This document shows, piece by piece, positions 1,780 through 57,362 of a stretch of DNA of 64,000 nucleotides. Source of the DNA: an uncultured Ectothiorhodospiraceae bacterium (GTDB lineage: Bacteria; Pseudomonadota; Gammaproteobacteria; S012-40). Each line of letters opens with the position of its first letter. The first letter of the stretch is position 1. A program made the translations under genes and the position numbers. Below the pieces are notes generated by a model. That model did not search any database. It worked only from the letters and a program-made list of their open reading frames with translations, and was not told the origin of the DNA. Where the stretch lies: positions 8,323-72,322 of the forward strand of contig CALZHW010000001.1 of the NCBI GenBank assembly GCA_945787125.1, in the 5' to 3' direction.

Positions 1780-3279
1780 TCAAACCCTTGACGGCTCAGG
1801 ATGACGTTGCAATCCATATTTACGGAGTTTCTCGACCAGCGTTGTACGACGCATTTTCAATCGCTTCGCGGCATGCGCCACAACCCCTTCGGCATCATCA
1901 AGCGCTTGTTTAATCAGGTTAAACTCCAGGTTACTGAGATGTTCTTTTAGATCTAAACCTTCACTTGGCAACCTTGGGTTTGAGGTCGGCGAAGAAAACA
2001 TTTCCACTGAACTAGCCGCAATAGCTTGACTGACTGCCAATTGCGCCTGCACCAGTTTACGTTCCTCAGCCACTTCATCTGCCATCACTACTTTGCCCTT
2101 GGGCTGAAATTTTTCAGGCAAATCAGCAATATCTACCACACCATAAGGATACATAATAACCAAACGCTCGATCAGGTTAGCGAGTTCACGCACGTTGCCA
2201 GGCCAACGGTACTGGCAAAGTGCCATAACTGTCCCAGGGGTTAATCGCACTGAGCCACGTTTTTCCGCTTCCATGCGCGCGATTAATTCATTCACCAACA
2301 ACGGAATATCATCAAGCCTATCGCGCAAAGGTGGCATCTCAATGGGAAAAACATTCAGCCGGTAATATAGATCTTCACGGAACTTTCCATCTCTAATTAG
2401 ATTTTCGAGATGACGATGAGTGGCCGCAACGATTCTGACATCTGCCTTCATGCTGCGATTGCTACCCACTCGCTCATAGGTGCGTTCTTGCAAAACTCTC
2501 AACAACTTAACTTGCATATGCAGGCTCATATCCCCGATTTCATCGAGAAATAACGTACCGCCCTCTGCCAGTTCAAATCGACCCTGACGCGCACTGATAG
2601 CGCCGGTAAATGCGCCTTTTTCATGGCCAAATAATTCACTTTCTAACAAGTCTGCCGGAATCGCACCGCAATTAACCGGTACAAATGGTTTGTTTCTGCG
2701 ACTGGAATTGTAATGCAGATTACGCGCAACAACTTCTTTGCCCGTGCCTGATTCACCGAGAATTAATACAGTAGCATCTGAGTCTGCAACCTGTGCCATC
2801 ATTTCGCGTACGGCGGTGACACTTCGGCTATTACCCACCAGACTTCTAAATAATTCTGTTGAGCGACTGTCTTTGGGTTTTTGTTGACTGATACGAAATA
2901 CCGTGGCTTGATGTAACACATCCGTTAACTGAACATATTTCAGGGGTAAGTCTATCGTGTTAAATGAATTCGACTGAATCGTCGTTTCAATGTCTGAAAT
3001 ATTTTTAGGGAGTTTCTTTAACTTTTCAACGAGTCGGATAATAGGTATGTCTTGATCAACCTCACGAATACCATCAAAAACTTTTTTCATGATCTCGTCG
3101 GAACCACAATCACCCAATAATACTGCCCCAAACGTATTGTTCGATTGCGTCACTGTTTCTTTCCAGTGACGACAATCCGTTATGCGTCCCTCTTGTTCAA
3201 CAAACTCCAGCACGCTCTTATAGATCTGGCGCTTTTGAGTGTCTTCTTCAATAATCAGCACTGTAGATGAATTCGACAT
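1780..3279 (-). CDS. fleQ: sigma-54-dependent flagellar master regulator (FleQ/FlrA-type)
   Basis: 499 aa with degenerate N-terminal receiver, AAA+ sigma-54 interaction domain (GESGTGKE Walker A, GAFTGA motif, DEIGDM Walker B) and C-terminal Fis-type HTH. First gene of the regulator triad. Confidence 0.8.
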
Positions 3280-3394: not shown

Positions 3395-3470
3395 GCGTTC
3401 AAATTTTTTCCCATAACCAGCGCCCGCATTGGCAATGCCTTATCGAGAGTGTTGAACTCCGATTCTGCGT
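3395..3470. repeat. Family-A MITE-like palindromic element, truncated copy
   Basis: ttcccataaccagcgcccg...ccttatcgagagtgttgaactccgattctg matches the left arm and right terminus of the full element at 3801-3996. Confidence 0.5.
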
Positions 3471-3800
3471 TATATAATGTGTCTGGTAAGCCATGCTCCC
3501 TACTGATGGCGTTAAGTAAAGCACGAAGAATATGTAATGTCAAAAAAACGTCGCCTAATTGACAGTTTTTTTCCTTTTAAATACAGAGCCTTATATTTAG
3601 CTATAGTATAAATCTTTGATTTTACGCAATTTATATAGCAACGATTCACTTCCTTTATTTTTAGCCTCACAAGCATTCAGTAAAACCTATTGGCTCAGTA
3701 AAACACTCAACTTGGCAGACTTGTAATATGAAAATGTAAACGGAATAAAGTGCAATTCAAAAGCAACTTATGGTTCATGCAGAGCAGGGGAATACAAGAA

Positions 3801-3996
3801 CTCACAATCAGAGTTCAAACTATTTCCCATAACCAGCGCCCGTAGCGGCAAAACCTCATCGAGAGACGCCGGGAATACCCCTATGTAGGCTTGACGGCAG
3901 CATCCATGTGGCACATAGGGCAACACTCTCGATAAGGTTTTGCCGCTACGGGCGCTGGAAAGAGGCACTTTTGCAGCCCTGAACTCCAATTGTAAG
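3801..3996. repeat. Family-A MITE-like palindromic element (~195 bp), full copy
   Basis: Terminal inverted repeats ctcacaatcagagttcaaac / gaactccaattgtaag. Internal long inverted arms ccagcgcccgtagcggcaaaacctcatcgagag ... ctctcgataaggttttgccgctacgggcgctgg. At least 12 further copies in the window. Confidence 0.8.
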
Positions 3997-4010
3997 TAAA
4001 AATCACTGGC

Positions 4011-5957
4011 ATGTTTCATGCTGAAAGCAATAACTTATTCCATCAATCAATTAAGCGAATGAAGAATCCTGCTTTGATAGAAACCGACGATATAGCAACC
4101 GCATATTCTTTTTTTCAACAAGGAGAGTTCGCGCAGTCGAATCAAATATGTCAGCATTTATTGCAAAATAATAACAATGACATCGACGCATTAAACCTGG
4201 CGGGCATCGTTGCCGATGCGCAGAATAAACAACTAGATGCCATAACGTATTTCAAAAAAGCCGTTGCTTTAGCCCCTAAAAACGCCCAGATCTTCACCAA
4301 CCTCGCCACAACCTTAATGGATCTGAACGAAAACAGTGAAGCTATACGTTATTTAAAACGCGCTATCAAAGCGGACAAATACTATGCCGAAGCTCACTAC
4401 AATCTCGGCAACGCCTATTTAAAAAAAAATAAAACCAGCGACGCCAAGAAGGCGTTGCTTAATGCTATAAAATATGACAAAAAGCATTTCAAAGCACTAA
4501 ATAATTTGGCAAACATTTATGAAACCGAAGATCAGCTGGAGATCGCAAAAAAATACTACAAACTATCACTGACTTACAATCAAAATTTTTCCATCGCACT
4601 AAATGGCCTAGGCTCTATTTACATACACCAAGAAAAACTCGACAAAGCCATCGAATGTTTTAGCAAGGCGCTAGCAGATGGCAATGAAGCACTCCCTGAA
4701 ACCCTCAACAGCCTGGGATACGCCTGGTTTAAACTCGGTAATATGGCAAATGCTGAAAAATATTTCTTACAATCGCTTTCTCTGACGCCAGACAACGTAT
4801 TACCTTTGAATTATCTTGGGCTAATACACCAGGAGAATCGAGCACATCAACAATCCATTGAGTCGCTAGAAAAAGCACTCGAGATATCACCTGACGACAC
4901 CCAACTCCTCAATAATCTCGGCCATGTTACACGAGAAGTTGGCCAGTTTACAAAATCAATTTCTCTGTTTGAAATGGCGGTAAATAAAAACCAAAACAAT
5001 GACTCCATTGACCGATCAATGGCGCTCAATAATCTGGCACTTACACAATTGTTAACTGAAGACTTTAAAAACGGCTGGGACAATCACCGTTTTAGACCCG
5101 GTGTTATTGAGGGAAACTCGTCTCCCTTCCCAGATAGAGACTCACTCTGCTTGACTGACAAAAAAATTCTTTGGCGAAAAGATCAAGGAATTGGGGATGA
5201 ACTGCTATTCTTACGGTTTGCACCGCTGCTCAATAGTATTGCCGCGAAATTTTCCTACCGTAGCTCAGAGAAACTTTATCCATTGATTAAAGACTTGAGC
5301 TGCTTTGAAAATGTGTATGCAAACGACAATATAGAAGACCAATATGACTATCAATTTTCTATTGGTGATATTGCCTATTTATTTGAACATCGCCATGCTA
5401 TTGATACACCACAACCCATAAAGCTAACACCTGACGCATCAACACTTACACGCATAAGGCAGACATTGAACCAATTCGGTTCGCCTCCCTACATCGGGTT
5501 CACCTGGCAAGCTGGTATTTTGAAAAATAACAAACGCGTTGGCAACTACCATAAAACTATAGATATCGAATACTTGATCAACTTATTGCGCCCAATAAAT
5601 GGCACACTCATCTGCCTGCAAGTTAACGCAAATAATGAAGATTTAAAGTATTTGTCGCAACAATTGAACCGACCCATACTCGACGCCTCGCCGTTTCACA
5701 ATCAATTAGAAAAAATGCTCTGTATTTTACAATTGATAGACGAATATTTTGCGGTGAGCAATACTTATGTTCACCTGCGAGAATCATTGGGCAAGTCATC
5801 TCATATCTTTGTTTCCAATCCACCTGAATGGCGCTGGCTTAGCAACATAGATAAATCTTACTGGCAGCCCAATAGCAAAATTTATCGACAAGCGATAGAT
5901 GGCAGCTGGCAAGACGCAATAAAGCACTGTAAACACACTATGCAGATAATAGATTAA
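4011..5957 (+). CDS. TPR-repeat protein fused to GT9 (heptosyltransferase-like) glycosyltransferase domain; putative flagellin glycosyltransferase, paralog 1
   Basis: 648 aa. N-terminal half has multiple 34-aa TPR units (AxxYxxLG patterns). C-terminal half carries GT9-like motifs (QGIGDELLFLRF N-lobe motif; VSNTYVHL..G..SHIFVSNPPEWRW resembling the DSGxMHLA.A.G C-lobe motif). Stop TAA overlaps ATG of the next paralog (TAATG at 5955-5959). Confidence 0.6.
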   Translation: MFHAESNNLFHQSIKRMKNPALIETDDIATAYSFFQQGEFAQSNQICQHLLQNNNNDIDALNLAGIVADAQNKQLDAITYFKKAVALAPKNAQIFTNLATTLMDLNENSEAIRYLKRAIKADKYYAEAHYNLGNAYLKKNKTSDAKKALLNAIKYDKKHFKALNNLANIYETEDQLEIAKKYYKLSLTYNQNFSIALNGLGSIYIHQEKLDKAIECFSKALADGNEALPETLNSLGYAWFKLGNMANAEKYFLQSLSLTPDNVLPLNYLGLIHQENRAHQQSIESLEKALEISPDDTQLLNNLGHVTREVGQFTKSISLFEMAVNKNQNNDSIDRSMALNNLALTQLLTEDFKNGWDNHRFRPGVIEGNSSPFPDRDSLCLTDKKILWRKDQGIGDELLFLRFAPLLNSIAAKFSYRSSEKLYPLIKDLSCFENVYANDNIEDQYDYQFSIGDIAYLFEHRHAIDTPQPIKLTPDASTLTRIRQTLNQFGSPPYIGFTWQAGILKNNKRVGNYHKTIDIEYLINLLRPINGTLICLQVNANNEDLKYLSQQLNRPILDASPFHNQLEKMLCILQLIDEYFAVSNTYVHLRESLGKSSHIFVSNPPEWRWLSNIDKSYWQPNSKIYRQAIDGSWQDAIKHCKHTMQIID

Positions 5958-8059
5958 TGCAGACTCAGCCACACAGTAACTCACACAGCAACATAGAGCT
6001 AGCGATCAAGCATTTAAGAGGCAACAATCTGCTACAAGCTGAGAGTTTCGCATTGGAACATATTGCGAACCACCCCGCCGATACTGTAATAGAGAAACTA
6101 TTGGGAGTTATTTACTTTCGGAAAAAAGACTTTAAACCGGCCATCGCATATCTAACATCCGCCATTGAGAAAACACCAGAAGATATTGAACTGCTCAACT
6201 TGCTGGGCTCGGTATATTTGGAAACGTGTGTATATGCAAAGTCTCTCGAATATTTTAGGCTGGCTTTAGCAATCAATCCTAACTATATTGACGCACAATT
6301 TAACTTAGGCCTGACATACTACAAAGAGCGGAAGTTTTCTGACGCCATATTAGCACTGCAAAAAACCCTCAATCTAGAAAAAAACAACATCCATGCAAAA
6401 TATTATCTTGCACTGTCTTTCATTGAGACTAATCAGTTATTACTGGGGCAAGAGATACTGGAATTACTAATAAAGGATAATCCAGAACGACAAAACATAG
6501 CCATTAGTTTATGCAAATACTACATCCAGCATAACAAACACATAGAAATAGACGCATTGATTTTATCACTCGATAATGACAACACAATGTTTAGTATTGC
6601 AAACTGCCTGCTGGAAAGTACGCTTAGAAAAAAGGCAATTCCTATTTATCAGGATCTATTAATTCACAGTAATGATAAATCATCAATTTTAAATAATCTG
6701 GCGATGGTTTATGACAAATTAAACCAAGCCGATATCGCATTGCCTCTATTTCAAGCGGCGATAGATGAAAAACCGGATTACATTGACGCACATAACAATT
6801 TAGGCCGTTTGCTAAGCGATATGAATCGTTTACCTGAAGCGCAAAAAATACTTCTAGATGCACTCTCGCTATCCCCTCGCCATACTAAAGCTCACATTAA
6901 TCTCGGTCGCGTTTATTACCTACAGAATAATTTGGAAAAATCAATTCAATGTTACCAAAAAGCCCTTGCTATCGAAGCAAATAATGCACTTGCACACTAC
7001 AATCTAGGAGTCTCTTATAACGCCATGGGATTGTTTGAACAGGCGATGGCAAGTTATATGACGTGTCTCAGTTTCAATGAGAATCACAATGATGCTGAAT
7101 TAAATCTTGGCATATGTGAACTAACCCTCGGCCAGTTTGCTAACGGCTGGGGTCATTACTTTCAACGCCACCGTTTTTTAAAGCATAAGGAAACGTTATC
7201 AACCATAAATCCAGGCAAAAACTACCAGGGAAAACACCTTTATTTCTGTTACAGCCAAGGAATCGGGGACGAACTCTTTTTCCTGCGTTTTCTTCCCCTG
7301 CTTAAGCAGCAAGAAGTATTCATTACCTATCGTTGCAGTCAAAAATTATATCCTTTGCTGCTTAAGCAGGCGCAGAACCCATTCATCGACAGACTCTTAA
7401 CGGAACACGAAAAAACACCTACATGTGACTACTATTTTACGGTTGATGATTTACCTTTAATTCTAGCGATGGATAGTGTTGAAAAAATTCCACCTAGCCT
7501 CAAATTTGATCAGCCAGACAAACAACTGATGGATAACCTCACGGCTGAATTTTCTGCGCTGCCACGCCCATTTATTGGCATTACATGGCGGGCCGGAACG
7601 CAACCAGAAGTCATCAACCATTACTCCAATCAAAATAATCTCAGTAAAATTTTCCCAATGAACAAGATGATAGATTTATTCAGGGGTTTAAAGGGAACGC
7701 TATTTGTATTACAGAGAAATCCAATGGTAGAGGAGATTGATCAATTAAAAAATAGCCTGCAGCAAGACATTGTTGATACATCTAACTACAACGATGATCT
7801 ATCCAGAATGCTGGGCTTACTAAACATTTTGGATGATTCAGTTTGTGTAAGCAATACTAATCTGCATTTGCTCGCCGCAATGAATAAATCAGCAAATGTA
7901 CTAATTCCTTACCCACCTGATTGGCGCTGGATGGATATCGAAACCTGTTCCCCGTGGTTCCCCGGTTTCAAGACCTTCCGTCAATTGAAAACTCAGAGCT
8001 GGGATGTTTGCCTACAACAATTAAAACACAAATTATTGGATTTATATGCCGTCGACTGA
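5957..8059 (+). CDS. TPR-repeat / GT9-like glycosyltransferase, paralog 2
   Basis: 700 aa with the same architecture and conserved motifs (QGIGDELFFLRF; VSNTNLHLLAAMNKSANVLIPYPPDWRW). Translationally coupled to flanking paralogs. Confidence 0.6.
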   Translation: MQTQPHSNSHSNIELAIKHLRGNNLLQAESFALEHIANHPADTVIEKLLGVIYFRKKDFKPAIAYLTSAIEKTPEDIELLNLLGSVYLETCVYAKSLEYFRLALAINPNYIDAQFNLGLTYYKERKFSDAILALQKTLNLEKNNIHAKYYLALSFIETNQLLLGQEILELLIKDNPERQNIAISLCKYYIQHNKHIEIDALILSLDNDNTMFSIANCLLESTLRKKAIPIYQDLLIHSNDKSSILNNLAMVYDKLNQADIALPLFQAAIDEKPDYIDAHNNLGRLLSDMNRLPEAQKILLDALSLSPRHTKAHINLGRVYYLQNNLEKSIQCYQKALAIEANNALAHYNLGVSYNAMGLFEQAMASYMTCLSFNENHNDAELNLGICELTLGQFANGWGHYFQRHRFLKHKETLSTINPGKNYQGKHLYFCYSQGIGDELFFLRFLPLLKQQEVFITYRCSQKLYPLLLKQAQNPFIDRLLTEHEKTPTCDYYFTVDDLPLILAMDSVEKIPPSLKFDQPDKQLMDNLTAEFSALPRPFIGITWRAGTQPEVINHYSNQNNLSKIFPMNKMIDLFRGLKGTLFVLQRNPMVEEIDQLKNSLQQDIVDTSNYNDDLSRMLGLLNILDDSVCVSNTNLHLLAAMNKSANVLIPYPPDWRWMDIETCSPWFPGFKTFRQLKTQSWDVCLQQLKHKLLDLYAVD

Positions 8060-9695
8060 CATGTTACAAGAAAAAATAATAGCACCCATCAATTTATTCC
8101 AACAAGGTAAATTGCAGGAGGCGAAAAAGTTACTAAAAAATGTACTTGAACTGCACCCTGGATATGCACATGCCTGGTTTATCCTGGGAATAATACACGC
8201 ACAACAGAATGATCTACAGGCTGCAGAAACGGCGCTAATAGCAGCAATCGATCGACAATCTATCTACCCTGAAGCATACAATAACCTTGGTGTAGTGTTT
8301 GATAAACTCGGCAAGTCGCACCAAGCCAAACAAGCCTATGAAAAAGCATTGCAGCAAAATCCTTCGTACTCACAGGCGCTTTACAATATCGCAAATATTT
8401 TCAAGGCGGAAGGCGCATTGGAAACCGCAATTTATTACTATCAAAAAGCGCTGAAAATCGACCCCCGATACGTAAATGCTTTAATTAACCTAGGAACCGT
8501 CTACCAACAGCGACGCAACTATGCAAAAGCTATCAGCTTGTTCGATCGCGCATTGCTTATCGACCCCAATGACCCGACCCTGCTGAATAATATAGGCTTA
8601 GCCTATTACTATAAATTTGAATACAATCAAGCACTCGATTATTATCAAAAAGCACTTCTTGCATGCCCTGGTTTACCTTCTGCGCTGCTAAATATCGCAC
8701 AAGTATTGCAATCCATGGAGGAATACCAAGCGGCCAAACAATATTTCGAGCGAGCAGCGCAAGACCCTGAACATAAAGAAGTTGCTCTAACGAATATCGG
8801 TTTAATGGAGCTGGGGTTATTGAATTTCGAAACGGGCTGGGATTTGTATCGAAATCGAAAAAGCATTAAAGAATTTACTGCTGATATTCCAACTATTTTG
8901 CCGACTGATTTAGCATCGAAAAACATACTTCTCTACAAAGACCAAGGGCTGGGAGACGAAATATTTTTTCTGCGATATGTCGCAATATTGCAGAAAGTTA
9001 ATACAAATCTCACCTATTATACAGACCCAAGACTGCAGACCATTTTGCAACGTTCACTTAATGATATCCAGATTACTAGCTTTGAAAAAAATTTTACGAA
9101 ATATGACCTAGTCATTCCTGTAAGTGAATTGCCACGATTACTTTGCAAGCAGATAAACGACCAAACACCTTGCTCAATACGTTTAAGTAACAACCCAAAT
9201 AATCAACAAAACATCGACAATGCCATGCCTAATAATGGTAAACGTAATATTGCCGTAACCTGGCAAGCAGGATCACCATTATTCAATCAGCTGTTTAAAC
9301 GAATTGAACCGGAAGAACTGGGGGTTATGTTAAAATATATTGACGCCAATGTATTAATTATTCAACGCGACCCAACAAAATCAGACATTAAAAAACTGGA
9401 AAAATCACTCGGTAGAAAAGTCTTTAATTTTTCCTATATTAATAATGATCTGGAAGATACCCTTGCATTTCTAACGCTCATTGATAACTACATAGCTGTC
9501 AGCAATACCAATGCTCACCTGTGTGCAGCACTGGGCAAGCAGGCGAACATTTTTGTGCCTTACCCCGCTGAATGGCGATGGACATTTTCAGAACTACAAA
9601 GCCCATGGTTTCCGAATTTTCCGCTCTACCGGCAAGATATTTCCGGCGATTGGCAAGCTGCCATTCAACATTGCTTCACTGATCTCAATCAATAA
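8046..9695 (+). CDS. TPR-repeat / GT9-like glycosyltransferase, paralog 3
   Basis: 549 aa with the same architecture (QGLGDEIFFLRY; VSNTNAHLCAALGKQANIFVPYPAEWRW). 14-nt overlap with paralog 2. Confidence 0.6.
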   Translation: MPSTDMLQEKIIAPINLFQQGKLQEAKKLLKNVLELHPGYAHAWFILGIIHAQQNDLQAAETALIAAIDRQSIYPEAYNNLGVVFDKLGKSHQAKQAYEKALQQNPSYSQALYNIANIFKAEGALETAIYYYQKALKIDPRYVNALINLGTVYQQRRNYAKAISLFDRALLIDPNDPTLLNNIGLAYYYKFEYNQALDYYQKALLACPGLPSALLNIAQVLQSMEEYQAAKQYFERAAQDPEHKEVALTNIGLMELGLLNFETGWDLYRNRKSIKEFTADIPTILPTDLASKNILLYKDQGLGDEIFFLRYVAILQKVNTNLTYYTDPRLQTILQRSLNDIQITSFEKNFTKYDLVIPVSELPRLLCKQINDQTPCSIRLSNNPNNQQNIDNAMPNNGKRNIAVTWQAGSPLFNQLFKRIEPEELGVMLKYIDANVLIIQRDPTKSDIKKLEKSLGRKVFNFSYINNDLEDTLAFLTLIDNYIAVSNTNAHLCAALGKQANIFVPYPAEWRWTFSELQSPWFPNFPLYRQDISGDWQAAIQHCFTDLNQ

Positions 9696-9778
9696 TCTTT
9701 CTGCCTACAAAACGTTTTGTAGGCATGCAAGCTGCATTGTATAACTACGTCTCATTAGATTATGCTATGGAGAATTAA

Positions 9779-10456
9779 TTGTTACGAGTTTTTATTGGCT
9801 ATGACCCGAGGGAGTCTATTGCGTTTAGTGTACTCGCTCATAGTATTCAACAACGCGCCTCTCAACCGGTTGCAATCATTCCGATTGCATTAAGTAGTCT
9901 AGGTGCAATATACACGCGTGAACGCGACCCACTCCAGTCTACAGATTTTTCTTTTTCGCGATTTCTAACACCCTATCTCTGCAATTACGAAGGCTGGTCA
10001 GTCTTTATGGATTGCGACATGATTGTGCTTGACGATATCGTCAAGCTATTTGATCACGCCGATGAAAAGAGCGCCGTTATGTGTGTCAAACACAATCATG
10101 TACCTATGGAGCAAGTGAAATTCCTGGGCGCCCCACAAAGTCGGTATGAAAAGAAAAACTGGACCAGCGTTATGTTATTTAATAATAAAAAATGCCGGAA
10201 ACTGACTCCAGAATATGTAAATGAGGCATCTGGCCTGGAATTACATCAATTTAAATGGCTAGAATCAGATGATTTGATTGGTAAATTACCAGGCCGATGG
10301 AATCACTTGGTGGGTTTTGACGAAACCAACAAGGAGGTATCTCTTGTCCACTTTACCACTGGCGGCCCCTACTTTAAAGAATATCGAGATTGTGAGTATT
10401 CTGAAGAGTGGCTACATGAATTAAAAAGTATGGAAAATTGCGAGCAACAAAAATGA
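9779..10456 (+). CDS. hypothetical protein, possible GT-A fold glycosyltransferase (GT8-like DxD motif)
   Basis: 225 aa, TTG start. FIGYDPRE...AFSV N-terminus and FMDCDMIVLDDIVKLFD resemble the nucleotide-sugar binding / DxD region of GT8-type transferases. Follows the three TPR-GT genes in the same orientation. Confidence 0.35.
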   Translation: MLRVFIGYDPRESIAFSVLAHSIQQRASQPVAIIPIALSSLGAIYTRERDPLQSTDFSFSRFLTPYLCNYEGWSVFMDCDMIVLDDIVKLFDHADEKSAVMCVKHNHVPMEQVKFLGAPQSRYEKKNWTSVMLFNNKKCRKLTPEYVNEASGLELHQFKWLESDDLIGKLPGRWNHLVGFDETNKEVSLVHFTTGGPYFKEYRDCEYSEEWLHELKSMENCEQQK

Positions 10457-10992
10457 ATAATTTGGTAACCAACAACACTGAAACAACAGCAAACCTTGAC
10501 CAGAATGTTCTATTGAGTTTTCTGGATCACACTGTATTACAGATTTCACAGGCTCACAGTGCAGAAGAAGTAGATCTTTTGATGGATGACTTTTTATCGC
10601 ACGATGTCATTAATATTTTCAGAAACAACAGTGAAATGTTTAGTTTATTGAATGCTGTATGGCTAAACACCTTCAAACGTATATTTATTGAACAACGATC
10701 TGACAGTTTTCCATTAAAAGTATTGTGGCTACCGTTATTGTTCAATGACTTTGGATGGGAAATTGAAGACATAGAAACCTTTGAAAGTGCCAATATGTGT
10801 TTTCAAAGCCAACACCTTGATCAATCTGATCTCTATAAGCACCTGGTAGAATTATTTATGAATGGTTTAAAGTTCAACCCTCAGGTTTCATTCAACTTAT
10901 TCAAAAAACGCTTGGATAATTTGAAGCTATCAAATTCAGACCAAACCAAAGTTAAGACATTGATACAAGAAATTGAAGAACTTGGTTGGTGA
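10438..10992 (+). CDS. hypothetical protein
   Basis: 184-aa ORF overlapping the previous gene by 19 nt. No recognisable motifs. Last gene of the plus-strand island. Confidence 0.3.
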   Translation: MRATKMNNLVTNNTETTANLDQNVLLSFLDHTVLQISQAHSAEEVDLLMDDFLSHDVINIFRNNSEMFSLLNAVWLNTFKRIFIEQRSDSFPLKVLWLPLLFNDFGWEIEDIETFESANMCFQSQHLDQSDLYKHLVELFMNGLKFNPQVSFNLFKKRLDNLKLSNSDQTKVKTLIQEIEELGW

Positions 10993-10996: not shown

Positions 10997-11173
10997 TTCA
11001 AAAATTACTTCCCTTAATCAGCGCTCGTAGTGGCAAGGCCTTATCGAGAGTGTTGGCAGCATGGATGCTGCCGTCAAGCCTACACGGATGTACTCACGGC
11101 GTCTCACGATAAGGTTTTGCTACTACGAGCGCTGGAAGGTGGCACTTTTGCAACTTTGAAGTCCGATTGTGAG
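10997..11173. repeat. Family-A MITE-like element
   Basis: cccttaatcagcgctcgtagtggcaaggccttatcgagagtgttggcagcatggatgctgccgtcaagcctaca...ttgaagtccgattgtgag. Left TIR degenerate. Confidence 0.75.
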
Positions 11174-11260
11174 TAGTTAAATTTCGATGACGGGAATTAT
11201 TGGGAGTATCTCTGAGTTGAAAAACGATGACTGGGCTAATTCACACTGCACGTTTCTTAT

Positions 11261-11566
11261 TCAATAACGCGCATATTCCTGAGCTGCTTTTTTACTAATT
11301 TTTGATTGTTTGAGATTATTTAAGCAATTATTCTTTTCAATATTACCCAATGTCTCAATTAAATAATTCGCTTCAATAGTTTCAGCGAGTTTTTTACCAA
11401 TTTCATTTTCACTATCGTTTTCTGGGCGGCATAAGCGCATTTTCTCTAACCATTCAGCGCGCTGCTGCTCCACCTCGAGCAGTTTTTCCCAATCAGCTGA
11501 TTGAGCGTACCCTAACATTTCAAATGTCAGTTTATGAACTTGTGATACTACTTGAGCGTAGGTCAT
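11261..11566 (-). CDS. fliT: flagellar export chaperone FliT-like protein
   Basis: 101-aa acidic helical protein directly downstream of fliS, the position FliT occupies in Pseudomonas and Vibrio. No strong motif, so the call rests on context. Confidence 0.45.
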   Translation of the reverse strand: MTYAQVVSQVHKLTFEMLGYAQSADWEKLLEVEQQRAEWLEKMRLCRPENDSENEIGKKLAETIEANYLIETLGNIEKNNCLNNLKQSKISKKAAQEYARY

Positions 11567-11596: not shown

Positions 11597-12046
11597 TCAA
11601 TCAACGTTCTGGGACAGTTTCACAGAATCCTCTTGAGTGTGTTTGTTAGTCGTCAATTCATCCGGAATTGCCTCCCAGGCTGACTTTACAGTTAGCAACA
11701 AACTCGATGCTTCATCTAACATTTCTTCACTGTTATTAGCGTTGGCTTCAACCAAACGCCGCTCTATATAGTCATATAGATTATTCAGATTATCAGCAAT
11801 CTCGCCGCCTTGATCTGCATTCAGACTTAGCCGAAGTCCTTCAACTATGGATATTGCCCAGCTTATGTAGTTGCCTTTATTTGCAATTTCTCCACGCTGC
11901 ATATAACCTTTTGCAGAAGATATTTTCTCCAGGGCACCATCAAGCAACATGCTTATGAGCCGATGTGGACTCGCATAGGAAGCGCCCGACTGAACGCTAA
12001 CTTTACCGTATTCTTTTAACGCACTCTGCACTTTGGCAGCACTCAT
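11597..12046 (-). CDS. fliS: flagellin-specific export chaperone FliS
   Basis: 149 aa, GASYASPHRLISMLLDGALEKI... a typical four-helix FliS. Located downstream of fliD. Confidence 0.8.
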   Translation of the reverse strand: MSAAKVQSALKEYGKVSVQSGASYASPHRLISMLLDGALEKISSAKGYMQRGEIANKGNYISWAISIVEGLRLSLNADQGGEIADNLNNLYDYIERRLVEANANNSEEMLDEASSLLLTVKSAWEAIPDELTTNKHTQEDSVKLSQNVD

Positions 12047-12092: not shown

Positions 12093-14111
12093 TTAATTTT
12101 GCCTTGCTCCCGGAAGAGACGCTAACTGGTTTTGTAAAAAACTACTCGTAGTATTGAGTTGTGCGACTAAGGAATCCATGGCACTAAACTGTTTAATATA
12201 ACGAGCTTCTATCAATGTGAGCCTTTCTTCCAACTTCTGTCGCTGCGCATTAATATCGTTTATTGAGGCATTCAAACCGTCAGTTTTGCTGTCTAGCAGG
12301 CCATCACTTTCAAGAAAACTGTCAATTAAACGGCTTAATTGCGACATTTTCCCTTCTTTGACGGTGATACTGGTAAACAAACTATCACTGCCTGTACCTG
12401 CGGCTCCGCCATTGATTTCCAGCTGGAAGCCAGCAAATATTCCTGAACCGGTCAATATATTACCGTTCAGTGTTGCCTCTTGGCCACCTATTGTCGCTGT
12501 TCCATCTACTCCGGGGATGCCTGCAATGCTCGCTTGCATTGATACTTCGGTAAAATCTTCAACTATTGCCACTGCTGAAGATACACCGTAGACACTTGAT
12601 ACAATGTTTAACTGGCCGTTATTGGTGCCAGAAAAAAAACTTGGATTAACGGTTACACTTTTACCACTGGCCACTAAATTGCTATCAGCATTAATTAAAT
12701 TTTGCAGATCAGCGGAAAAAGCACTTAAGGCATTTTCACTCGAAAGCGAACCACCAGCACCATCATCAAAATAGTTTTTATTAATCGATATGGAGTTTGA
12801 ATTAACACCATCTACGGCAATTTTAAAATCAAACGGCCCACCCGTACTAAAATTCAAATTCGATGCCGCAAAGTTATTACCAGTCCAACTACCCTGTTTT
12901 GGTTGTTGACCAACCTCTACATTGTATGATCCAGCACCAATATTATCGGTTATGCTGAGAATATTAATATCATTATTGGTACTACTAGACTTACCACCGG
13001 CTAAGAGATGTTTTACGGCATCAGGCTCGGTCTCTAAAGCGGCATTAAATTTATCACTATCAAATTCCAGCGTGCCATCGCGCGCAGTGAGGATACCAAG
13101 ACTGGCAAAGGAATTATATTTTGAAAACGGATCATTTGATGCTGAAGTATTCAGCACATTTCTGACCTGCGATACAATACCACGTACCGTTGCATCACCA
13201 ATCAGTATCCCAGAATTACCGGTTTCCTCATTATAAAATGAGGCCGTATTTAGCGTTTCCATCAAACCATTGAAACCATCAACAAACCCTTGCACTGCTT
13301 CTTTTACACCAGAGTCATCTTTCTCTATAGTGAGTTTTTCGGTTGTTGTGCCGGCAGACTTAAGGTCTAGTGTTACATTTTCGATAATATTGGAAATATT
13401 ATTCGTCTGACTGGTTATTGATACACCATCAATAGTTAGCAAGGCATTCGAGGATGCCTGAGTTTCTTTCAGATTAGCGCTTGCAAAAGCGCTTAAATCA
13501 CCGGTTGTTGAGGATGCTGTAATGCTTAAATTGCCTTCTTCACCCGTTTTTGACGTTATCACTAATTGATAGGCACTACCGTCATATAATACATTGGCCG
13601 TAACACCAATGTTTTTATCATTGATAGAGTCTCGGATGTCTAACAAACTGCCTTCATTTATATCAACCGTATGGGAAATACCTGTGGCATTATCAATATC
13701 GCCCTGAAATTCAAATGTCAGCGTTCCAGTTCCCATTGATAGGGTTTTATCACTTATGCCAGGTGGGGCAACATCAGTTTGTAGTTTTTGTGCGGCTGCA
13801 ATCGCATCGATTTCAATATCATAGGATGATACATCGGCGCTTCTGCTGGCGGTCGCGGTGAACATAGTGTCATTACTACTTGATGCAAAGACTTTACTAA
13901 ATGAGGAAGTGAGTTTTAACTGACTAAAGGTGCCTTGGAAATCGGATAAAGCACTTTTCATTGTGCTATACATCGAAAGTTTGGCTTGGTACTCTGTTTC
14001 TCGACGATCATAACGAGCGGACTTAGCAGCGCCCTCAGCTTCTATTAAACTGGACACTAAACCCTTAATATCAAGTCCTGAGCCAACGCCGAGAGATGAT
14101 ATAGCTGCCAT
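12093..14111 (-). CDS. fliD: flagellar filament capping protein FliD (HAP2)
   Basis: 672 aa. Conserved N-terminus SSLGVGSGLDIKGLVSSLIEAE and C-terminus QFSAMDSLVAQLNTTSSFL are typical of FliD. Confidence 0.85.
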   Translation of the reverse strand: MAAISSLGVGSGLDIKGLVSSLIEAEGAAKSARYDRRETEYQAKLSMYSTMKSALSDFQGTFSQLKLTSSFSKVFASSSNDTMFTATASRSADVSSYDIEIDAIAAAQKLQTDVAPPGISDKTLSMGTGTLTFEFQGDIDNATGISHTVDINEGSLLDIRDSINDKNIGVTANVLYDGSAYQLVITSKTGEEGNLSITASSTTGDLSAFASANLKETQASSNALLTIDGVSITSQTNNISNIIENVTLDLKSAGTTTEKLTIEKDDSGVKEAVQGFVDGFNGLMETLNTASFYNEETGNSGILIGDATVRGIVSQVRNVLNTSASNDPFSKYNSFASLGILTARDGTLEFDSDKFNAALETEPDAVKHLLAGGKSSSTNNDINILSITDNIGAGSYNVEVGQQPKQGSWTGNNFAASNLNFSTGGPFDFKIAVDGVNSNSISINKNYFDDGAGGSLSSENALSAFSADLQNLINADSNLVASGKSVTVNPSFFSGTNNGQLNIVSSVYGVSSAVAIVEDFTEVSMQASIAGIPGVDGTATIGGQEATLNGNILTGSGIFAGFQLEINGGAAGTGSDSLFTSITVKEGKMSQLSRLIDSFLESDGLLDSKTDGLNASINDINAQRQKLEERLTLIEARYIKQFSAMDSLVAQLNTTSSFLQNQLASLPGARQN

Positions 14112-14188
14112 GTTTACCTCGATACGGTTATTAATTCATTATAATGCGCTATGCAGTCCTGCACCTACACTTACACCTAACTGAATAA

Positions 14189-14204
14189 GGCAAATTTCGC
14201 GCCA
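14189..14204 (-). promoter_or_regulatory. candidate sigma-54 (-24/-12) promoter for fliD-fliS-fliT
   Basis: Reverse strand reads TGGCGCGAAATTTGCC, i.e. GG-N10-GC with correct spacing, about 65 nt upstream of the fliD ATG. Confidence 0.4.
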
Positions 14205-14344
14205 TTCAATAAGTTTGTTTGATTTACATTCTTGGTTTATCGATATGCTGTCAATTAAACATTCGTGCATTGGTGAATGTCTTGATTTCAAATGTTTACA
14301 TGTAACTCTATATTTATTCTTACAACACTATTTCGGCTAAAGAA

Positions 14345-14378
14345 AAAGGGCGGAATCTAACTTCCGCCCTTTTTTAAT
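14345..14378. terminator. rho-independent terminator downstream of flagellin gene 1 (bidirectional hairpin)
   Basis: aaaaagggcggaatctaacttccgcccttttttaa: 8-bp GC-rich stem (gggcggaa/ttccgccc) followed by T-run. Readable on both strands. Confidence 0.6.
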
Positions 14379-14380
14379 TT

Positions 14381-16477: not shown

Positions 16478-16523
16478 TTACTGAAAACTGTATGCACTAG
16501 AAGACAAACAACATTACTCTATG

Positions 16524-53998: not shown

Positions 53999-55027
53999 TT
54001 AAATAACTCTTAAATAATTCTGATTCGCCAGATACCAATCCACGGTTTTCTCTATGCCTTGTTCAAACTGCAAGGAAGGCGACCAGGTTAATTCGTTTTT
54101 CAATTTTTCGCCATTAATCGCATAACGCCAATCATGCCCCGGCCGATCGGTGACAAAGGTAATCAAGGACTCATAGGGTTTATCCCAGGGGCTTTTTGCA
54201 TCTAACAACGTACAAATAATTTTTGCAATATCATTATTTGCCCACTCATTATTACCACCGACATTATAGGTTTCGCCAATTTTTCCTTGTCGCACCACCT
54301 TATCAATTGCCGTACAGTGATCATCCACATAAAGCCAATCGCGAATATTGGTGCCATCACCGTAAACCGGAATCGAATCATGATTCAAACACGCACGAAT
54401 CACCGTAGGAATGAATTTTTCACCGTGCTGATAAGCACCATAATTGTTTGAGCAGTTACTGGTGGTCACCGGCAAACCATAGGTATGCAAATAGGAGCGA
54501 ACCAGATGATCAGACCCCGCTTTAGATGCGGAGTACGGTGAATTCGGTGCATAAGGCGTTGTTTCAGTAAAAGCCGGCTCATCTGCTGACAAGGTTCCAT
54601 AGACCTCATCGGTTGAAATGTGGTGAAAGCGGCATTGTGTTTCGCCCCAACCTTTTTCATTCAACCAAACCTGACGCGCGGCCTCAAGTACCGTAAATGT
54701 TCCGATCAGGTTGGATTGTATAAATGCCGCAGGCCCGGTGATTGATCGATCCACATGACTTTCTGCTGCAAAATGCACAATGTTGTTGATATCATGTTCT
54801 TTTAACAAGCTTAACATCAATGCTGAATCACAAATATCGCCTTCAACAAATCGATGCCGCTCAGGCGCTGGTAAATTTTCAAGGTTTTTAAGACTACCGG
54901 CAAAACTTAAATTATCAACATTGACGATGTTTACCGTCTCATCGCTGGTCAGCAAATATCTAATATAGTTACTACCAATAAAGCCTGCACCACCGGTGAC
55001 CAATACATTTTTAGGGCTAAAACTCAT
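53999..55027 (-). CDS. rmlB: dTDP-glucose 4,6-dehydratase
   Basis: 342 aa, NVLVTGGAGFIGSNYIRYLL Rossmann motif, YSASKAGSD catalytic YxxxK. Confidence 0.9.
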   Translation of the reverse strand: MSFSPKNVLVTGGAGFIGSNYIRYLLTSDETVNIVNVDNLSFAGSLKNLENLPAPERHRFVEGDICDSALMLSLLKEHDINNIVHFAAESHVDRSITGPAAFIQSNLIGTFTVLEAARQVWLNEKGWGETQCRFHHISTDEVYGTLSADEPAFTETTPYAPNSPYSASKAGSDHLVRSYLHTYGLPVTTSNCSNNYGAYQHGEKFIPTVIRACLNHDSIPVYGDGTNIRDWLYVDDHCTAIDKVVRQGKIGETYNVGGNNEWANNDIAKIICTLLDAKSPWDKPYESLITFVTDRPGHDWRYAINGEKLKNELTWSPSLQFEQGIEKTVDWYLANQNYLRVI

Positions 55028-55914
55028 TATTTAACGAGCTCCTTAATCATAATTTTTAGTTCGTCTTGCCAGGAATACTGATCGATATCAAATACCGCTT
55101 TAAGCTTAGAACAATCCAGCCGACTATTTTGCGGACGCTTGGCAGGCAACGGGAATTCGTTAGTGGCTATGGGTAAAACGCGCTTGACCATTAAGGTTTC
55201 GTGTTGGCGGGTATTTTCAATAATGGCGTTGGCAAACTCATACCAGGTGCTTTGCGGAAGATCGCAATAATGATATGTACCAAATGCCGTAAAATCTTTA
55301 TTCTGCTCTTTACTCTGCATGGCATGACAAATTCGCAACAGAACTTTCGAAACATTCACCGTGGACGTAGGACAACCGTGTTGATCACTGACGATCTTAA
55401 GCTCTTCTCTCTCACGTGCCAGGCGTTGAATGGTTTTTACAAAGTTATGCCCATATAAACCAAATGCCCAGCTAATTCTTAATATAATGTGTTGCGGCAA
55501 AATGGCGCGGACGGCTTCTTCTCCTGCATTTTTACTTTGGCCGTAAACCCCCATAGGGTTAACCGGGTCTGTTTCTGTATAAGCCGTTTTTTTATCGCCA
55601 TCAAAGACATAATCGGTTGAAATATGAATGAGCGGAACATCGAGCGCAAGACAAGCCTTGGCGATATTTTCCGGCCCGTTCTGGTTCACCTTGAACGCAA
55701 GATCAGGCTCGGACTCTGCTTTATCGACGGCAGTGTAAGCCGCAGCATTAATCACCAAATCCGGGGTGATCTCACGCATTTTTTCGAGCACTGCCTGAGC
55801 ATTAGTGATATCCAGACCATTGCGATCAAGTGCCACCACATCAAACGTCGTCGCCGCAAGATGACACAAGTTTTGCCCTAACTGCCCACCAGCACCTAAT
55901 ACTAAGAGCTTCAT
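55027..55914 (-). CDS. rmlD: dTDP-4-dehydrorhamnose reductase
   Basis: 295 aa, MKLLVLGAGGQLGQNL... RmlD-type short-chain reductase. Sits between rmlC and rmlB. Confidence 0.85.
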   Translation of the reverse strand: MKLLVLGAGGQLGQNLCHLAATTFDVVALDRNGLDITNAQAVLEKMREITPDLVINAAAYTAVDKAESEPDLAFKVNQNGPENIAKACLALDVPLIHISTDYVFDGDKKTAYTETDPVNPMGVYGQSKNAGEEAVRAILPQHIILRISWAFGLYGHNFVKTIQRLAREREELKIVSDQHGCPTSTVNVSKVLLRICHAMQSKEQNKDFTAFGTYHYCDLPQSTWYEFANAIIENTRQHETLMVKRVLPIATNEFPLPAKRPQNSRLDCSKLKAVFDIDQYSWQDELKIMIKELVK

Positions 55915-56468
55915 AATGTGGGTAAATCCTCGGGAGTCATAGCAGATAATAGCGATGCATTTTTGTCCTTTTCTGACAACTCCACTTCATCCAATGCAAT
56001 CGGCCAATCGATAGCGATTGCAGGGTCATCAAAGCGAATACTTTTTTCAGATTCTGGATGATAATAGTCGGTGCATTTATAAATAAAATCAACCGTCTCT
56101 GAAAGCACACAAAACCCATGCGCAAAACCCGGTGGCACATACATTTGACGATGATTTTCATCACTTAGAATCACCCCGACCCATTGACCAAACGTCGCTG
56201 AACCCTGGCGGACATCGACTGCCACATCATATACGTCGCCGCGCGAAACACTCACCAGCTTGCCTTGCGGTTGTATCAACTGATAGTGCAAACCCCGCAG
56301 TACGCCACGAAAAGAGCGTGAATGATTATCCTGCACAAACTGCTCATTTATTCCCGCATCCGCATAACGCACCTGATTATAGGTTTCTTGAAAAAAACCT
56401 CGCTGATCACCGAAAACTTTCGGCTCCAGGATAAGCACACCTGGTAACTTTGTCTCAATAATGTTCAA
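55911..56468 (-). CDS. rmlC: dTDP-4-dehydrorhamnose 3,5-epimerase
   Basis: 185 aa cupin, FGDQRGFFQETYN...RGLHYQ motifs. Confidence 0.85.
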   Translation of the reverse strand: MNIIETKLPGVLILEPKVFGDQRGFFQETYNQVRYADAGINEQFVQDNHSRSFRGVLRGLHYQLIQPQGKLVSVSRGDVYDVAVDVRQGSATFGQWVGVILSDENHRQMYVPPGFAHGFCVLSETVDFIYKCTDYYHPESEKSIRFDDPAIAIDWPIALDEVELSEKDKNASLLSAMTPEDLPTL

Positions 56469-56483
56469 TATCGCCTCCGCTGT

Positions 56484-57362
56484 TTATAATTTTCGATGGA
56501 GAATATTTTTTAAATATTCCCCGTAGCCGTTTTTCATTAAAGGCGCTGCAAGCTTCTCCAGCTGCTCGGCATCGATGTAACCCTGGCGAAAGGCGATTTC
56601 TTCCGGACAACAAATTTTCAGCCCTTGGCGCTCTTCCACCACTTGAATAAAATTTGCCGCAGCGAGCAGCGAATCATGCGTTCCCGTATCCAACCATGCC
56701 GAACCACGACCCAGCTTTTCTACATGGAGCTCTTCTTGCTGTAGATATACATTATTAACATCCGTTATCTCAAGCTCACCACGGGCTGAAGGTTTGATCT
56801 CTTTGGCAATCTCGACAACCTGGTTATCGTAGAAATACAGCCCGGTCACCGCATAATTGGATTTCGCAATTTTGGGTTTTTCTTCAATGCTGATGGCATT
56901 ACCCGACCCGTCGAATTCCACTACGCCATAACGCTCAGGATCTTTCACGTAGTAACCAAATACCGTTGCACCTTTATCCCTTTTGGTCGAATTCGCCAGC
57001 GTGGATTCCAAGCCATGTCCATAGAAGATGTTATCTCCCAGTACGAGACTCACTGGACTATTATCGATGAATTCTTCACCAATCGTAAACGCCTGCGCCA
57101 AACCTTTGGGCTCTTCCTGCACAGCGTATTGAATACTTATTCCCCATTTTTGACCATCGCCCAATAAACGCTGAAATAATATGGCATCCTGAGGTGTAGT
57201 AATGATCAAAATATCGCGTATGCCAGCCAGCATTAACAGCGAAACCGGATAATAAATCATCGGCTTATCATAAATCGGCATGAGTTGTTTGCTGACTGAC
57301 ATTGTCAATGGGTGAAGGCGAGTACCGGAGCCACCGGCTAGTACGATTCCTTTGTAGTTCAA
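56484..57362 (-). CDS. rmlA: glucose-1-phosphate thymidylyltransferase
   Basis: 292 aa, [16 protein letters not shown] nucleotidyltransferase motif. Confidence 0.9.

Follow-up and report, generated by a model that had tools for sequence, protein, structure and literature searches.

The plus-strand island between fleQ and fliT is a five-gene operon within a polar-flagellum gene cluster, and its most likely role is cytoplasmic O-glycosylation of flagellin ahead of export. Its five ORFs, the first three encoding paralogs with TPR repeats and a glycosyltransferase domain (TPR-GT), lie in the window (the whole 64,000-nucleotide stretch analysed here) where the original prediction placed them, with fleQ and fliD-fliS-fliT on the opposite strand (Table 1). 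The operon-like coupling of the genes was also borne out: the ATG of paralog 2 lies on the stop of paralog 1 (TAATG, a 1-nt overlap), ORF2 and ORF3 overlap by 14 nt, and the start of ORF5 overlaps the stop of ORF4. Judged from orthologue N-termini, paralog 1 probably starts at M17, and this start is preceded by a candidate sigma-54 element. Equivalent elements precede the leading TPR-GT gene of two relatives (by 41 nt in L089 and ca. 60 nt in L087), and the same pattern occurs upstream of fliD, flaB, flgB and flgG in the window; over the window as a whole it is not enriched (17 observed vs 11 ± 3.4 expected). From these elements, transcription of the island is probably sigma-54/FleQ-dependent.

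Table 1. Features of the island and of its surroundings, in positions of the window
Feature	Position	Strand	Description and basis
fleQ	1780..3279	-	Sigma-54 flagellar master activator, divergent left neighbour; Pfam FleQ, Sigma54_activat, HTH_8
Palindromic dispersed repeat	3817..3998	not assigned (.)	Copy directly upstream of island
Candidate sigma-54-type -24/-12 element	4007..4021	+	TGGCATGTTTCATGC; pattern search
TPR-GT paralog 1	4011..5957	+	648 aa listed, probably 632 aa from M17 at 4059; TPR ~aa 30-345; GT9-like GT-B aa 341-648 (nt 5031-5954)
TPR-GT paralog 2	5957..8059	+	700 aa; TPR ~aa 20-390; GT9-like aa 381-700 (nt 7097-8056)
TPR-GT paralog 3	8046..9695	+	549 aa; TPR ~aa 10-245; GT9-like aa 247-549 (nt 8784-9692)
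ORF4	9779..10456	+	225 aa; GT8-like (GT-A, retaining-type fold) glycosyltransferase
ORF5	10453..10992	+	179 aa by public gene call; 184 aa from TTG at 10438
Palindromic dispersed repeat	11002..11175	not assigned (.)	Copy directly downstream of island
fliT	11261-11566	-	Convergent right neighbour; Pfam FliT
fliS	11597-12046	-	Convergent right neighbour; Pfam FliS
fliD	12093-14111	-	Convergent right neighbour; Pfam FliD_N/C
Flagellin genes (2)	14381-15823 and 16524-17969	-	480 and 481 aa; Pfam Flagellin_N/C
rmlA-rmlC-rmlD-rmlB	53999..57362	-	dTDP-L-rhamnose pathway; Pfam NTP_transferase, dTDP_sugar_isom, RmlD_sub_bind, GDP_Man_Dehyd

Each paralog joins an N-terminal TPR solenoid to a GT-B domain that, at the C-terminus, belongs structurally to the GT9 (heptosyltransferase) lineage; this agrees with the architecture first proposed, the TPR part by Pfam and the GT-B part by predicted structure and hhalign. 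The Pfam search named originally as a check gave strong TPR_1 matches for all three N-terminal arrays (E = 1e-38 to 1e-45). The C-terminal domains share 28–34% mutual identity, and the motifs first noticed in them (QG[IL]GDE..F[LF]LR[FY], VSNT.xHL and P.[ED]WRW) are fully or almost fully conserved across the three. The same check had a mixed outcome for these domains, which matched no Pfam or NCBIfam family even at E = 10, PF01075 included, so that their likeness to GT9 rests on structure and profile-profile comparison. In structural comparison the AF2 model (pLDDT 91.6) best matches WaaC and WaaF, both LPS heptosyltransferases, and the GT9 protein 3TOV from Veillonella. A profile of 122 family sequences aligns with E. 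coli WaaC/WaaF/WaaU (hhalign, Prob 87%, E = 4e-7); in this alignment the two motifs coincide, and the Asp of QGxGDE falls on the catalytic Asp13 of WaaC. Paralog 1 matches the family profile at 4e-101 (hmmsearch), and PF01075 is the sole recurrent Pfam match across the family (11 of the 122 members, best E = 2.7e-4).

These matches would also suit LPS or glycolipid enzymes of heptosyltransferase type, using ADP-heptose as GT9 enzymes do, with the TPR part serving complex assembly only and with no role in protein glycosylation. We consider this highly improbable, because the sequences are no more than 10–14% identical to GT9 enzymes, no domain of the window matches PF01075, and LPS core enzymes have neither a TPR fusion nor a flagellar context. 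Likewise, the Asp of the GT9 motif VSVDTG is replaced by Asn (VSNTN), suggesting a different donor pocket, ADP-heptose genes were not seen in the window, and sister islands encode sugar methyltransferases and RmlD-like enzymes as partners. The donor is probably not ADP-heptose. TibC is an example of a GT9-lineage enzyme able to glycosylate proteins; with GT9 heptosyltransferases and TibC/AAH the window proteins share the catalytic GD motif that follows beta-1 and VS.(D/N)T...HL, but they differ in the low identity, the lack of a PF01075 match and the TPR fusion, and they show no sign of the iron-finger dodecamer features of TibC.

ORF4 has, as first proposed, a predicted GT-A/GT8-like fold and a DxD motif (the invariant D78-C-D80), although its Pfam GT8 score is below threshold (PF01501, E = 0.0024, 17.9 bits, cut-off 24.3). 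Its closest known systems are the retaining GT8 enzymes (LgtC, the GT8 domain of WbbM, GlyE and glycogenin), from which it is set apart as a distinct, highly conserved subfamily of 225 aa with ca. 70% identity across classes. Co-occurrence among the sampled loci makes ORF4 a conserved partner of TPR-GT modules. ORF5 matched no family in profile searches; in the close relatives L001, L084, L086, L087 and L089 a gene of 179–194 aa always follows ORF4.

The island recurs at the same place in relatives. Six related contigs share the order fleQ / n TPR-GT / ORF4 / ORF5 / fliT, with n = 3–6, and the window has the lowest copy number (3) among them. The cassette adjoins fleQ in L084, L087 and L089 and lies upstream of fliT in L001, L086 and L087, followed in the last two by fliS-fliD-flaG-flagellin; L086 and L087 also carry an extra TPR-GT gene between or beside their flagellin genes. 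TPR-GT genes further occur among flagellar genes, with ORF4 alongside, in three other lineages, namely a Steroidobacteraceae (L007), a Comamonadaceae (L076) and an alphaproteobacterial (L070) MAG, and flagellin-like ORFs were found inside the TPR-GT locus of two Thiobacillaceae-type MAGs (L037 and L063). This placement upholds the original proposal of a flagellin glycosylation island.

The paralogs show 42–51% identity with their positional counterparts in other genomes (44% for paralog 1 with L001_3, L084_2 and L089_2; 42–47% for paralog 2 with L001_4, L084_3 and L089_3), vs 28–34% with their own neighbours. This pattern marks an old array with a kept order: the three paralogs are ancient, order-conserved orthologue groups and not a recent triplication. 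Nor is such an array unusual, as had been supposed, because relatives carry three to six copies and at least two occur at 30 of the 80 sampled loci. The strong divergence between paralogs might indicate that one or more of them is catalytically dead and serves as a TPR scaffold or chaperone in flagellin export or assembly; TPR proteins are often type III secretion chaperones, and the TPR part gives NCBIfam matches to LcrH/SycD and SctY. There is very little to recommend this possibility, since all three paralogs keep every near-invariant family residue (Q-G-x-G-D-E, K, Q, V-S-N-T-x-x-H-L, W-R-W) and each has conserved orthologues elsewhere, indicating purifying selection on the whole domain. 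The separate specificities suggested for two divergent flagellins are likewise weakened, because the two flagellin genes do exist but their products are only moderately divergent (71% identity, BLASTP).

The domain family as a whole is very large, with 42,456 representatives at E <= 1e-3, and includes fused proteins with up to six modules. Among 80 loci sampled, no more than about 6 have flagellar genes within 10 kb, and many Burkholderiales copies adjoin porin, MgtE and aldo-keto-reductase genes. We thus infer flagellin as the target from gene context, the family being mostly outside flagellar loci. These enzymes could instead be active on another acceptor, either a polysaccharide or a different flagellar or surface protein such as the FliD cap, the hook, a pilin or an adhesin; their place in the flagellar locus would then reflect no more than co-regulation or an intergenic site tolerant of insertions. 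The prevalence of family members away from flagellar genes would agree with this, as would an array in L088 that includes ORF4 and borders on a type IV pilin gene, a 3114-aa member in an Oscillatoriales cyanobacterium, and TibC, the closest protein-modifying structural relative here, which glycosylates an autotransporter. The repeats on both sides of the island might also suggest insertion, but they are copies of a genome-wide element (at least 10 copies within 64 kb) and therefore not informative on this island in particular. We regard a non-flagellin acceptor as unlikely, given the recurrence of the position from fleQ to fliT-fliS-fliD-flagellin in close relatives and of flagellar placement in three further lineages, and the TPR-GT genes that lie between or adjoin the flagellin genes of L086 and L087; besides, flagellin is by far the most often glycosylated of the flagellar proteins.

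For flagellin glycosylation, the nearest known enzyme is, by analogy of domain plan, FlmG of Caulobacter. The Pseudomonas islands (P. aeruginosa FgtA/PA1091 and P. syringae Fgt1/Fgt2) are alike in having glycosyltransferase and modification genes embedded in the polar flagellar cluster, but are located between flgL and fliC, unlike the window island, between fleQ and fliT. Maf proteins (Campylobacter, Aeromonas, Shewanella, Clostridium) also O-glycosylate flagellin in the cytoplasm before export, with nonulosonic acids as donors and often from several paralogs in flagellar loci; however, they form an unrelated protein family, and no window ORF has a Maf-type Pfam match. The FgtA-type analogy of the original prediction had to be dropped, because PA1091/FgtA is described as a fusion of a GT2 enzyme with a phosphotransferase (PMC11833859) and not as a TPR and GT-B protein. 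FlmG, the flagellin O-glycosyltransferase of Caulobacter crescentus, comprises TPR (1–313) and GT-B (309–596) parts (PMC7591256), and its donor specificity changes when the GT-B domain is exchanged (bioRxiv 2022.03.25.485807). It resembles the window paralogs in its N-terminal TPR array of ca. 300 aa and C-terminal GT-B domain of ca. 290 aa, in being, like them, a cytoplasmic protein of 550–700 aa, and in the linkage of its gene to flagellar genes; in addition, the primer-derived FlmG peptide 301–316 (FQIPGVRWSGQDLRGK) resembles the family domain start P..RW.G..L.G in L087_5.

As the sugar donor, a 6-deoxyhexose (dTDP-L-rhamnose, for example) is more probable than a nonulosonic acid. FlmG of C. 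crescentus and Brevundimonas subvibrioides transfers pseudaminic or legionaminic acid from CMP-Pse/CMP-Leg (PMC7591256, bioRxiv 10.1101/2022.03.25.485807), whereas no NulO (Pse/Leg) genes were found among the Pfam-annotated ORFs of the window, and there are hints of deoxyhexose chemistry. A gene for the rhamnosyl O-methyltransferase RMNT_CmcI occurs in the islands of L001 and L087, and RmlD-like genes in those of L086 and L070; P. syringae flagellin glycans, which begin with rhamnose and can hold methylated deoxyhexose (PMC3927599), are consistent with these hints. The sister islands thus agree, indirectly, with the rml operon as the dTDP-rhamnose source originally proposed, but we only infer its link to the island. 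This operon lies 43 kb away, with polysaccharide genes beside it, and its role may instead be in LPS.

In the model borrowed from FlmG, the TPR domain would dock flagellin and the GT-B domain, choosing the donor, would move a sugar from its nucleotide carrier onto Ser/Thr or onto a previously attached sugar. Specificity may differ between the three paralogs, for distinct sugars, linkages or steps, and an oligosaccharide would therefore be built directly on the protein; ORF4 would contribute one further conserved residue to the glycan, and ORF5 would be accessory. The likeness to FlmG is an analogy of domain plan, and an array of three ordered TPR-GT paralogs (up to six elsewhere) with a GT8-like partner differs from the single-enzyme FlmG system.

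The five co-directional plus-strand ORFs of the original prediction, together with their overlaps, TPR arrays, motifs and flanks, were confirmed by an ORF scan of the window and by Pfam searches. Gene 1 shares 1 nt with gene 2 (TAATG), and gene 2 shares 14 nt with gene 3; likewise, the start of ORF5, taken at 10453, overlaps the stop of ORF4. All the neighbours of the island are on the opposite strand, with a histidine kinase and FleQ to its left and FliT, FliS, FliD, two flagellins, FlgL, FlgK, FlgJ, FlgI, FlgH, FlgG, FlgF, FlgE, FlgD, FlgC and FlgB to its right, and its G+C content is 0.37-0.41, versus ca. 0.43 for the window. The exact protein 3 is recorded in NCBI assembly GCA_945787255.1, a metagenome-assembled genome (MAG), and the nearest species-level relative that we found is an uncultured Ectothiorhodospiraceae MAG (locus L001). 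Elsewhere in the window, adjoining flgN, is a trio of genes with no established link to the flagellar island, whose products are DUF2064/CofC-like, a GT2 glycosyltransferase and a radical SAM protein that carries DUF3641.

Coordinates of features in the window and in related loci
Feature	Sequence	Position	Strand	Remarks
PAS/HisKA/HATPase histidine kinase	window	463-1686	-	left of island
FleQ	window	1780-3279	-	left of island
83-aa ORF	window	3768-4019	-	rejected as gene
Sigma-54-type element	window	4007-4021		
TPR-GT gene 1	window	4011-5957	+	648 aa; 632 aa if started at M17 (4059)
TPR-GT gene 2	window	5957-8059	+	700 aa
TPR-GT gene 3	window	8046-9695	+	549 aa
ORF4	window	9779-10456	+	225 aa
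ORF5	window	10438-10992	+	184 aa; 179 aa in public gene call from 10453
fliD-flagellin interval	window	14111-14381		flaG absent
TGGC-N8-TGC element	window	14190-14204	-	just upstream of fliD
TGGC-N8-TGC element	window	18075-18089	-	just upstream of second flagellin gene (flaB)
TGGC-N8-TGC element	window	25335-25349	-	just upstream of flgG
TGGC-N8-TGC element	window	29636-29650	-	just upstream of flgB
Trio adjoining flgN	window	33840-36414	-	
ATP-sulfurylase/APS kinase	window	37766-39481		bifunctional
Palindromic repeat	window	3817-3998, 11002-11175		island edges
Palindromic repeat	window	3401-3454, 16385-16478, 22497-22667, 26263-26499, 29919-30097, 34599-34746, 40068-40224, 57447-57772, 61242-61397		further copies
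Modification genes	L001	12355-20505		just before fliT
Cluster 7 protein	L001	13384-14067		
Cluster 7 protein	L076	7389-8012		
TPR-GT homologue	L003	10001-10915		in-frame stop codon
Extra TPR-GT9-like gene	L086	17579-19396		between two flagellin genes
Extra TPR-GT9-like gene	L087	19581-20687		partial, at cut end of contig
TPR(-GT) array	L088	7504-20559		beside type IV pilin gene

Two direct copies of a palindromic, MITE/REP-like dispersed repeat of ca. 180 nt, 84-85% identical to each other, bracket the island exactly and might be taken as the mark of a mobile island; we rejected this reading because the repeat occurs between genes throughout the genome, at least 10 times in the 64-kb window. 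It is predicted to form a long hairpin (-82 kcal/mol, z = -8.8), has weak matches in the relatives L084 and L085, and possibly acts as a terminator, an RNA stability element or a mobile element. The 83-aa ORF that overlaps the repeat lacks a family match and was discarded as a gene.

The N-terminal halves of proteins 1-3 are TPR arrays (Pfam TPR_1, E = 1e-38 to 1e-45), and their C-terminal ca. 300 residues are 28-34% identical to each other and share the motifs first noticed in the sequence. Pfam thus strongly supported the TPR half of the predicted TPR + GT9 architecture; for the other half, the three C-terminal domains had no match in Pfam or NCBIfam at a cut-off as loose as E = 10, and PF01075 (Glyco_transf_9) gave none at E ≤ 10, let alone above its gathering threshold. 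Nor did a profile of the domain retrieve any meaningful match, or solved structure, among PDB sequences. Structure prediction bore out the expected GT-B, GT9-like fold: AlphaFold2 modelled the gene-3 domain with confidence (pLDDT 91.6, pTM 0.90), and the solved structures nearest to this predicted model are GT9 enzymes, with Foldseek returning the same set as the other fold comparison (WaaC, WaaF, the Veillonella GT9 structure 3TOV and TibC) at E = 2e-9 to 3e-6.

We then compared A4, the 122-sequence alignment of the family domain, with the real E. coli WaaC, WaaF and WaaU sequences by hhalign. Global comparison with a three-sequence alignment of these proteins gave Prob 87% and E = 4e-7, a probability reached only in this way, since single WaaC or WaaF produced only local alignments of 37-43 columns over the VS.DTG motif, with Prob 2-3%. 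The global alignment pairs KDQGLGDE with KTSSMGDV, which holds the catalytic Asp13 of WaaC, and VSNTNAHL with VSVDTGLSHL, where the Asp of the second motif is Asn in the TPR-GT family; hence, both the G-D Asp after strand beta-1 and the C-terminal VS.DTG..H motif of GT9 enzymes have counterparts in A4. PF01075 was the sole Pfam family matched repeatedly in A4, weakly and by only 11 of its 122 members (best E = 2.7e-4). Together, the fold matches, the global alignment and these scarce Pfam hits indicate, at the level of models and profiles, that the domain is a divergent branch of the GT9 structural lineage and not a Pfam-level GT9 member; the protein glycosyltransferase TibC belongs to the same lineage. 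All three window paralogs keep every residue that is nearly invariant in A4, suggesting that they are probably all active glycosyltransferases.

These results bear on which known system the island resembles. The proposed analogy with the FgtA-type islands of Pseudomonas fails, because FgtA/PA1091 is a GT2 enzyme fused to a phosphotransferase (PMC11833859), with a GT-A catalytic domain, whereas the window enzymes are GT-B/GT9-like and have no Glycos_transf_2 match. FlmG from Caulobacter, of 596 aa, is instead composed of a TPR domain (residues 1-313) and a GT-B domain (309-596) (PMC7591256), and replacing the latter changes its donor specificity from Pse to Leg (bioRxiv 2022.03.25.485807). The window proteins share this plan, an N-terminal TPR array followed by a GT-B domain of about 290 aa, as well as the association with flagellar genes, their array being located between fleQ and fliT-fliS-fliD-flagellins; by this likeness, we regard FlmG as their right functional analogue. 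However, FlmG is a single enzyme that uses a nonulosonic acid (NulO) donor, and we found no NeuB/PseI, PseB/C or CMP-NulO synthetase domains, and hence no NulO pathway, in the ORFs with Pfam annotation in the 64-kb window or in the syntenic islands. This, the multi-paralog ordered array and the conserved GT8 partner are what is new with respect to known systems. Searches for FlmG itself retrieved no candidates: an exact 23-mer from the published flmG primer had 0 matches in metagenome contigs, the single match of a degenerate, back-translated primer-derived peptide was a molybdopterin oxidoreductase and thus a false positive, and a chimeric query of such peptides yielded no FlmG candidate in the protein index. 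By eye only, the domain start of the extra copy in L087, PAPRWQGEPLTG, resembles the 16-aa primer-derived FlmG peptide FQIPGVRWSGQDLRGK.

ORF4 is predicted to adopt a GT8-type GT-A fold and carries a DxD metal/nucleotide-sugar motif; its match to PF01501 (Glyco_transf_8) is below threshold (E = 0.0024, 17.9 bits, cut-off 24.3), and a precomputed PF01501 match exists for some of its homologues. ORF5 has no family match in Pfam or NCBIfam and, among the loci compared, is confined to close relatives.

Using ORF4 homologues, we located close relatives in strict synteny with the window island. L084 and L089 contain fleQ, five TPR-GT genes, ORF4 and ORF5; L087 contains fleS-fleQ, four TPR-GT genes, ORF4, ORF5, a methyltransferase, RMNT_CmcI, FliT-FliS-FliD-FlaG-flagellin and a further TPR-GT gene; L086 shows TPR-GT genes (two profile-confirmed), an SDR/RmlD-like gene, a methyltransferase, ORF4, ORF5, FliT-FliS-FliD-FlaG-flagellin, TPR-GT and flagellin; and L001 has at least six TPR-GT genes, ORF4 (73% identical), ORF5, radical SAM, methyltransferases, RMNT_CmcI, an FkbM methyltransferase, a TPR-sulfotransferase and FliT. 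The placement of the array between the fleQ and fliT sides thus recurs in these five loci, and in three other lineages (L007, L070 and L076) TPR-GT and ORF4 occur among flgK/flgL, flagellin, fliD or fliS. Arrays of three to six copies being the norm in relatives, the triplication in the window is not unusual, contrary to what had been supposed. The nearest positional counterparts are L001_3, L084_2 and L089_2 for gene 1 (44%), L001_4, L084_3 and L089_3 for gene 2 (42-47%), and L084_5, L001_6 and L089_5 for gene 3 (45-51%). Because each paralog is closer to these than to its window neighbours (28-34%), sequence comparison indicates that the array is an old, ordered set, of whose five or six members the window keeps three.

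The flaG gene, present in L086 and L087, is absent between fliD and the flagellin gene of the window. L086 and L087 have an extra, more divergent TPR-GT9-like gene, located between the flagellin pair in the former (profile E = 1.5e-70) and immediately next to flagellin in the latter (E = 9e-13). The window lacks this gene, and the spacer between its flagellin genes carries a copy of the dispersed repeat. Just before fliT, L001 encodes a radical SAM/SPASM protein, three methyltransferases (including RMNT_CmcI and FkbM types) and a TPR-sulfotransferase fusion, which suggests that its island glycan is methylated and possibly sulfated. The window also encodes a bifunctional ATP-sulfurylase/APS kinase.

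A pattern search of the window revealed the sigma-54-type element TGGCATGTTTCATGC at the beginning of the island. The N-termini of orthologues suggest M17 as the true start of gene 1, which would leave the element 38 nt upstream; the listed ATG falls inside this -24/-12 element. Likewise, TGGCATAATAAGTGC and CGGCACGGAAGCTGC are found, respectively, 41 and ca. 60 nt upstream of the first TPR-GT gene in L089 and L087. The TGGC-N8-TGC elements preceding fliD, the second flagellin gene, flgG and flgB fit a flagellar hierarchy driven by sigma-54, of the type seen in Pseudomonas and Vibrio; since the pattern is not enriched window-wide, sigma-54 control of the island is something we only infer. A search of the region upstream of the island revealed no sigma-28 consensus.

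The TPR-GT family is very large. An exhaustive profile search retrieved 42,456 representatives, corresponding to 50%-identity clusters (about 42,000), at E ≤ 1e-3, and 22,387 at E ≤ 1e-30. The top-scoring members (P0015-P0164) are giant fusions (858-3140 aa) of two to six tandem modules, for instance one of 3114 aa from an Oscillatoriales cyanobacterium, and are named only 'tetratricopeptide repeat protein' in their source records; this is also the prevailing name across the family, with few members described as TPR-containing glycosyltransferase or GT9 family protein. Among 80 sampled species-level loci, 30 contained at least two modules within 10 kb, and 33 an ORF4 homologue, often directly after the last module. 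Flagellar genes were nearby in only about six (L001, L007, L037, L063, L070 and L076), and many Burkholderiales copies are found beside porin, MgtE, aldo-keto reductase and FAH genes. We found no flagellar context for plasmid copies from Azospirillum, Ralstonia and Burkholderia: no flagellar gene lies within 10 kb of the copy on the Ralstonia megaplasmid, and that of B. thailandensis sits among IS elements and T6SS genes. In L088, a metagenome contig that was found via ORF4 and is not one of the 80 loci, the array adjoins a type IV pilin gene, which hints that some arrays may modify pilin and not flagellin; it comprises about five TPR(-GT) genes, ORF4 and methyltransferases, alongside type II/IV secretion ATPase-like genes. 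A protein of ca. 200 aa with a SAM-methyltransferase-like motif and no Pfam match (cluster 7) accompanies TPR-GT in 13 of the 80 loci (L001, L076 and 11 others); it does not occur in the portion of the window that was clustered, its first 22 kb. The stop codon in the GT domain of the homologue in L003, an alphaproteobacterial chromosome, may reflect a pseudogene or a sequencing error.

The best-supported model, by analogy, is that of a flagellar-locus glycosylation operon of FlmG-like modular enzymes, which retains the glycosylation operon of the original prediction and abandons its FgtA parallel and its unusual triplication. Every paralog in the window would bind flagellin and attach to it a single type of sugar, and ORF4 would contribute another. 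We consider flagellin the probable target of the window enzymes, the main caveat being the broad, mostly non-flagellar distribution of the family. A rhamnose-type glycan is weakly favoured by the lack of NulO genes in the window or sister islands, the rhamnosyl O-methyltransferase and RmlD-like genes of the latter, the rmlBDCA genes of the window, and the rhamnose and methylated deoxyhexose borne by P. syringae flagellin (PMC3927599).

More tentatively, TPR-GT9-like modules might constitute a very large class of cytoplasmic enzymes, outside Pfam models, that O-glycosylate proteins in the manner of assembly lines. Each module would carry its own acceptor-docking TPR domain, and three to six separate, ordered genes, or giant proteins with up to six modules, would extend an oligosaccharide stepwise, building a defined structure directly on a folded or chaperone-free protein (here flagellin) and with no lipid carrier. 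The universally conserved GT8-like ORF4 would perform a common core step, FlmG would represent a general combinatorial system at its minimum of one module, and differences in copy number between strains (3, 4, 5 or 6) would generate flagellar glycan diversity.

Flagellin glycosylation influences filament assembly, motility, immune recognition and phage adsorption. To our knowledge, only two classes of enzymes responsible for it have been studied in depth, namely Maf and the single-enzyme FlmG, and both work with nonulosonic acids. An ordered array of FlmG-like enzymes that varies in copy number, has a conserved GT8 partner and lacks NulO genes in its vicinity would extend the FlmG principle, in which the TPR docks the acceptor and the GT-B domain picks the donor, to multi-step and probably deoxyhexose-based glycans, and would provide a function for a family of about 42,000 50%-identity clusters mostly named by their TPR alone. 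Being separable, the modules could also be used as building blocks in protein glycosylation engineering.
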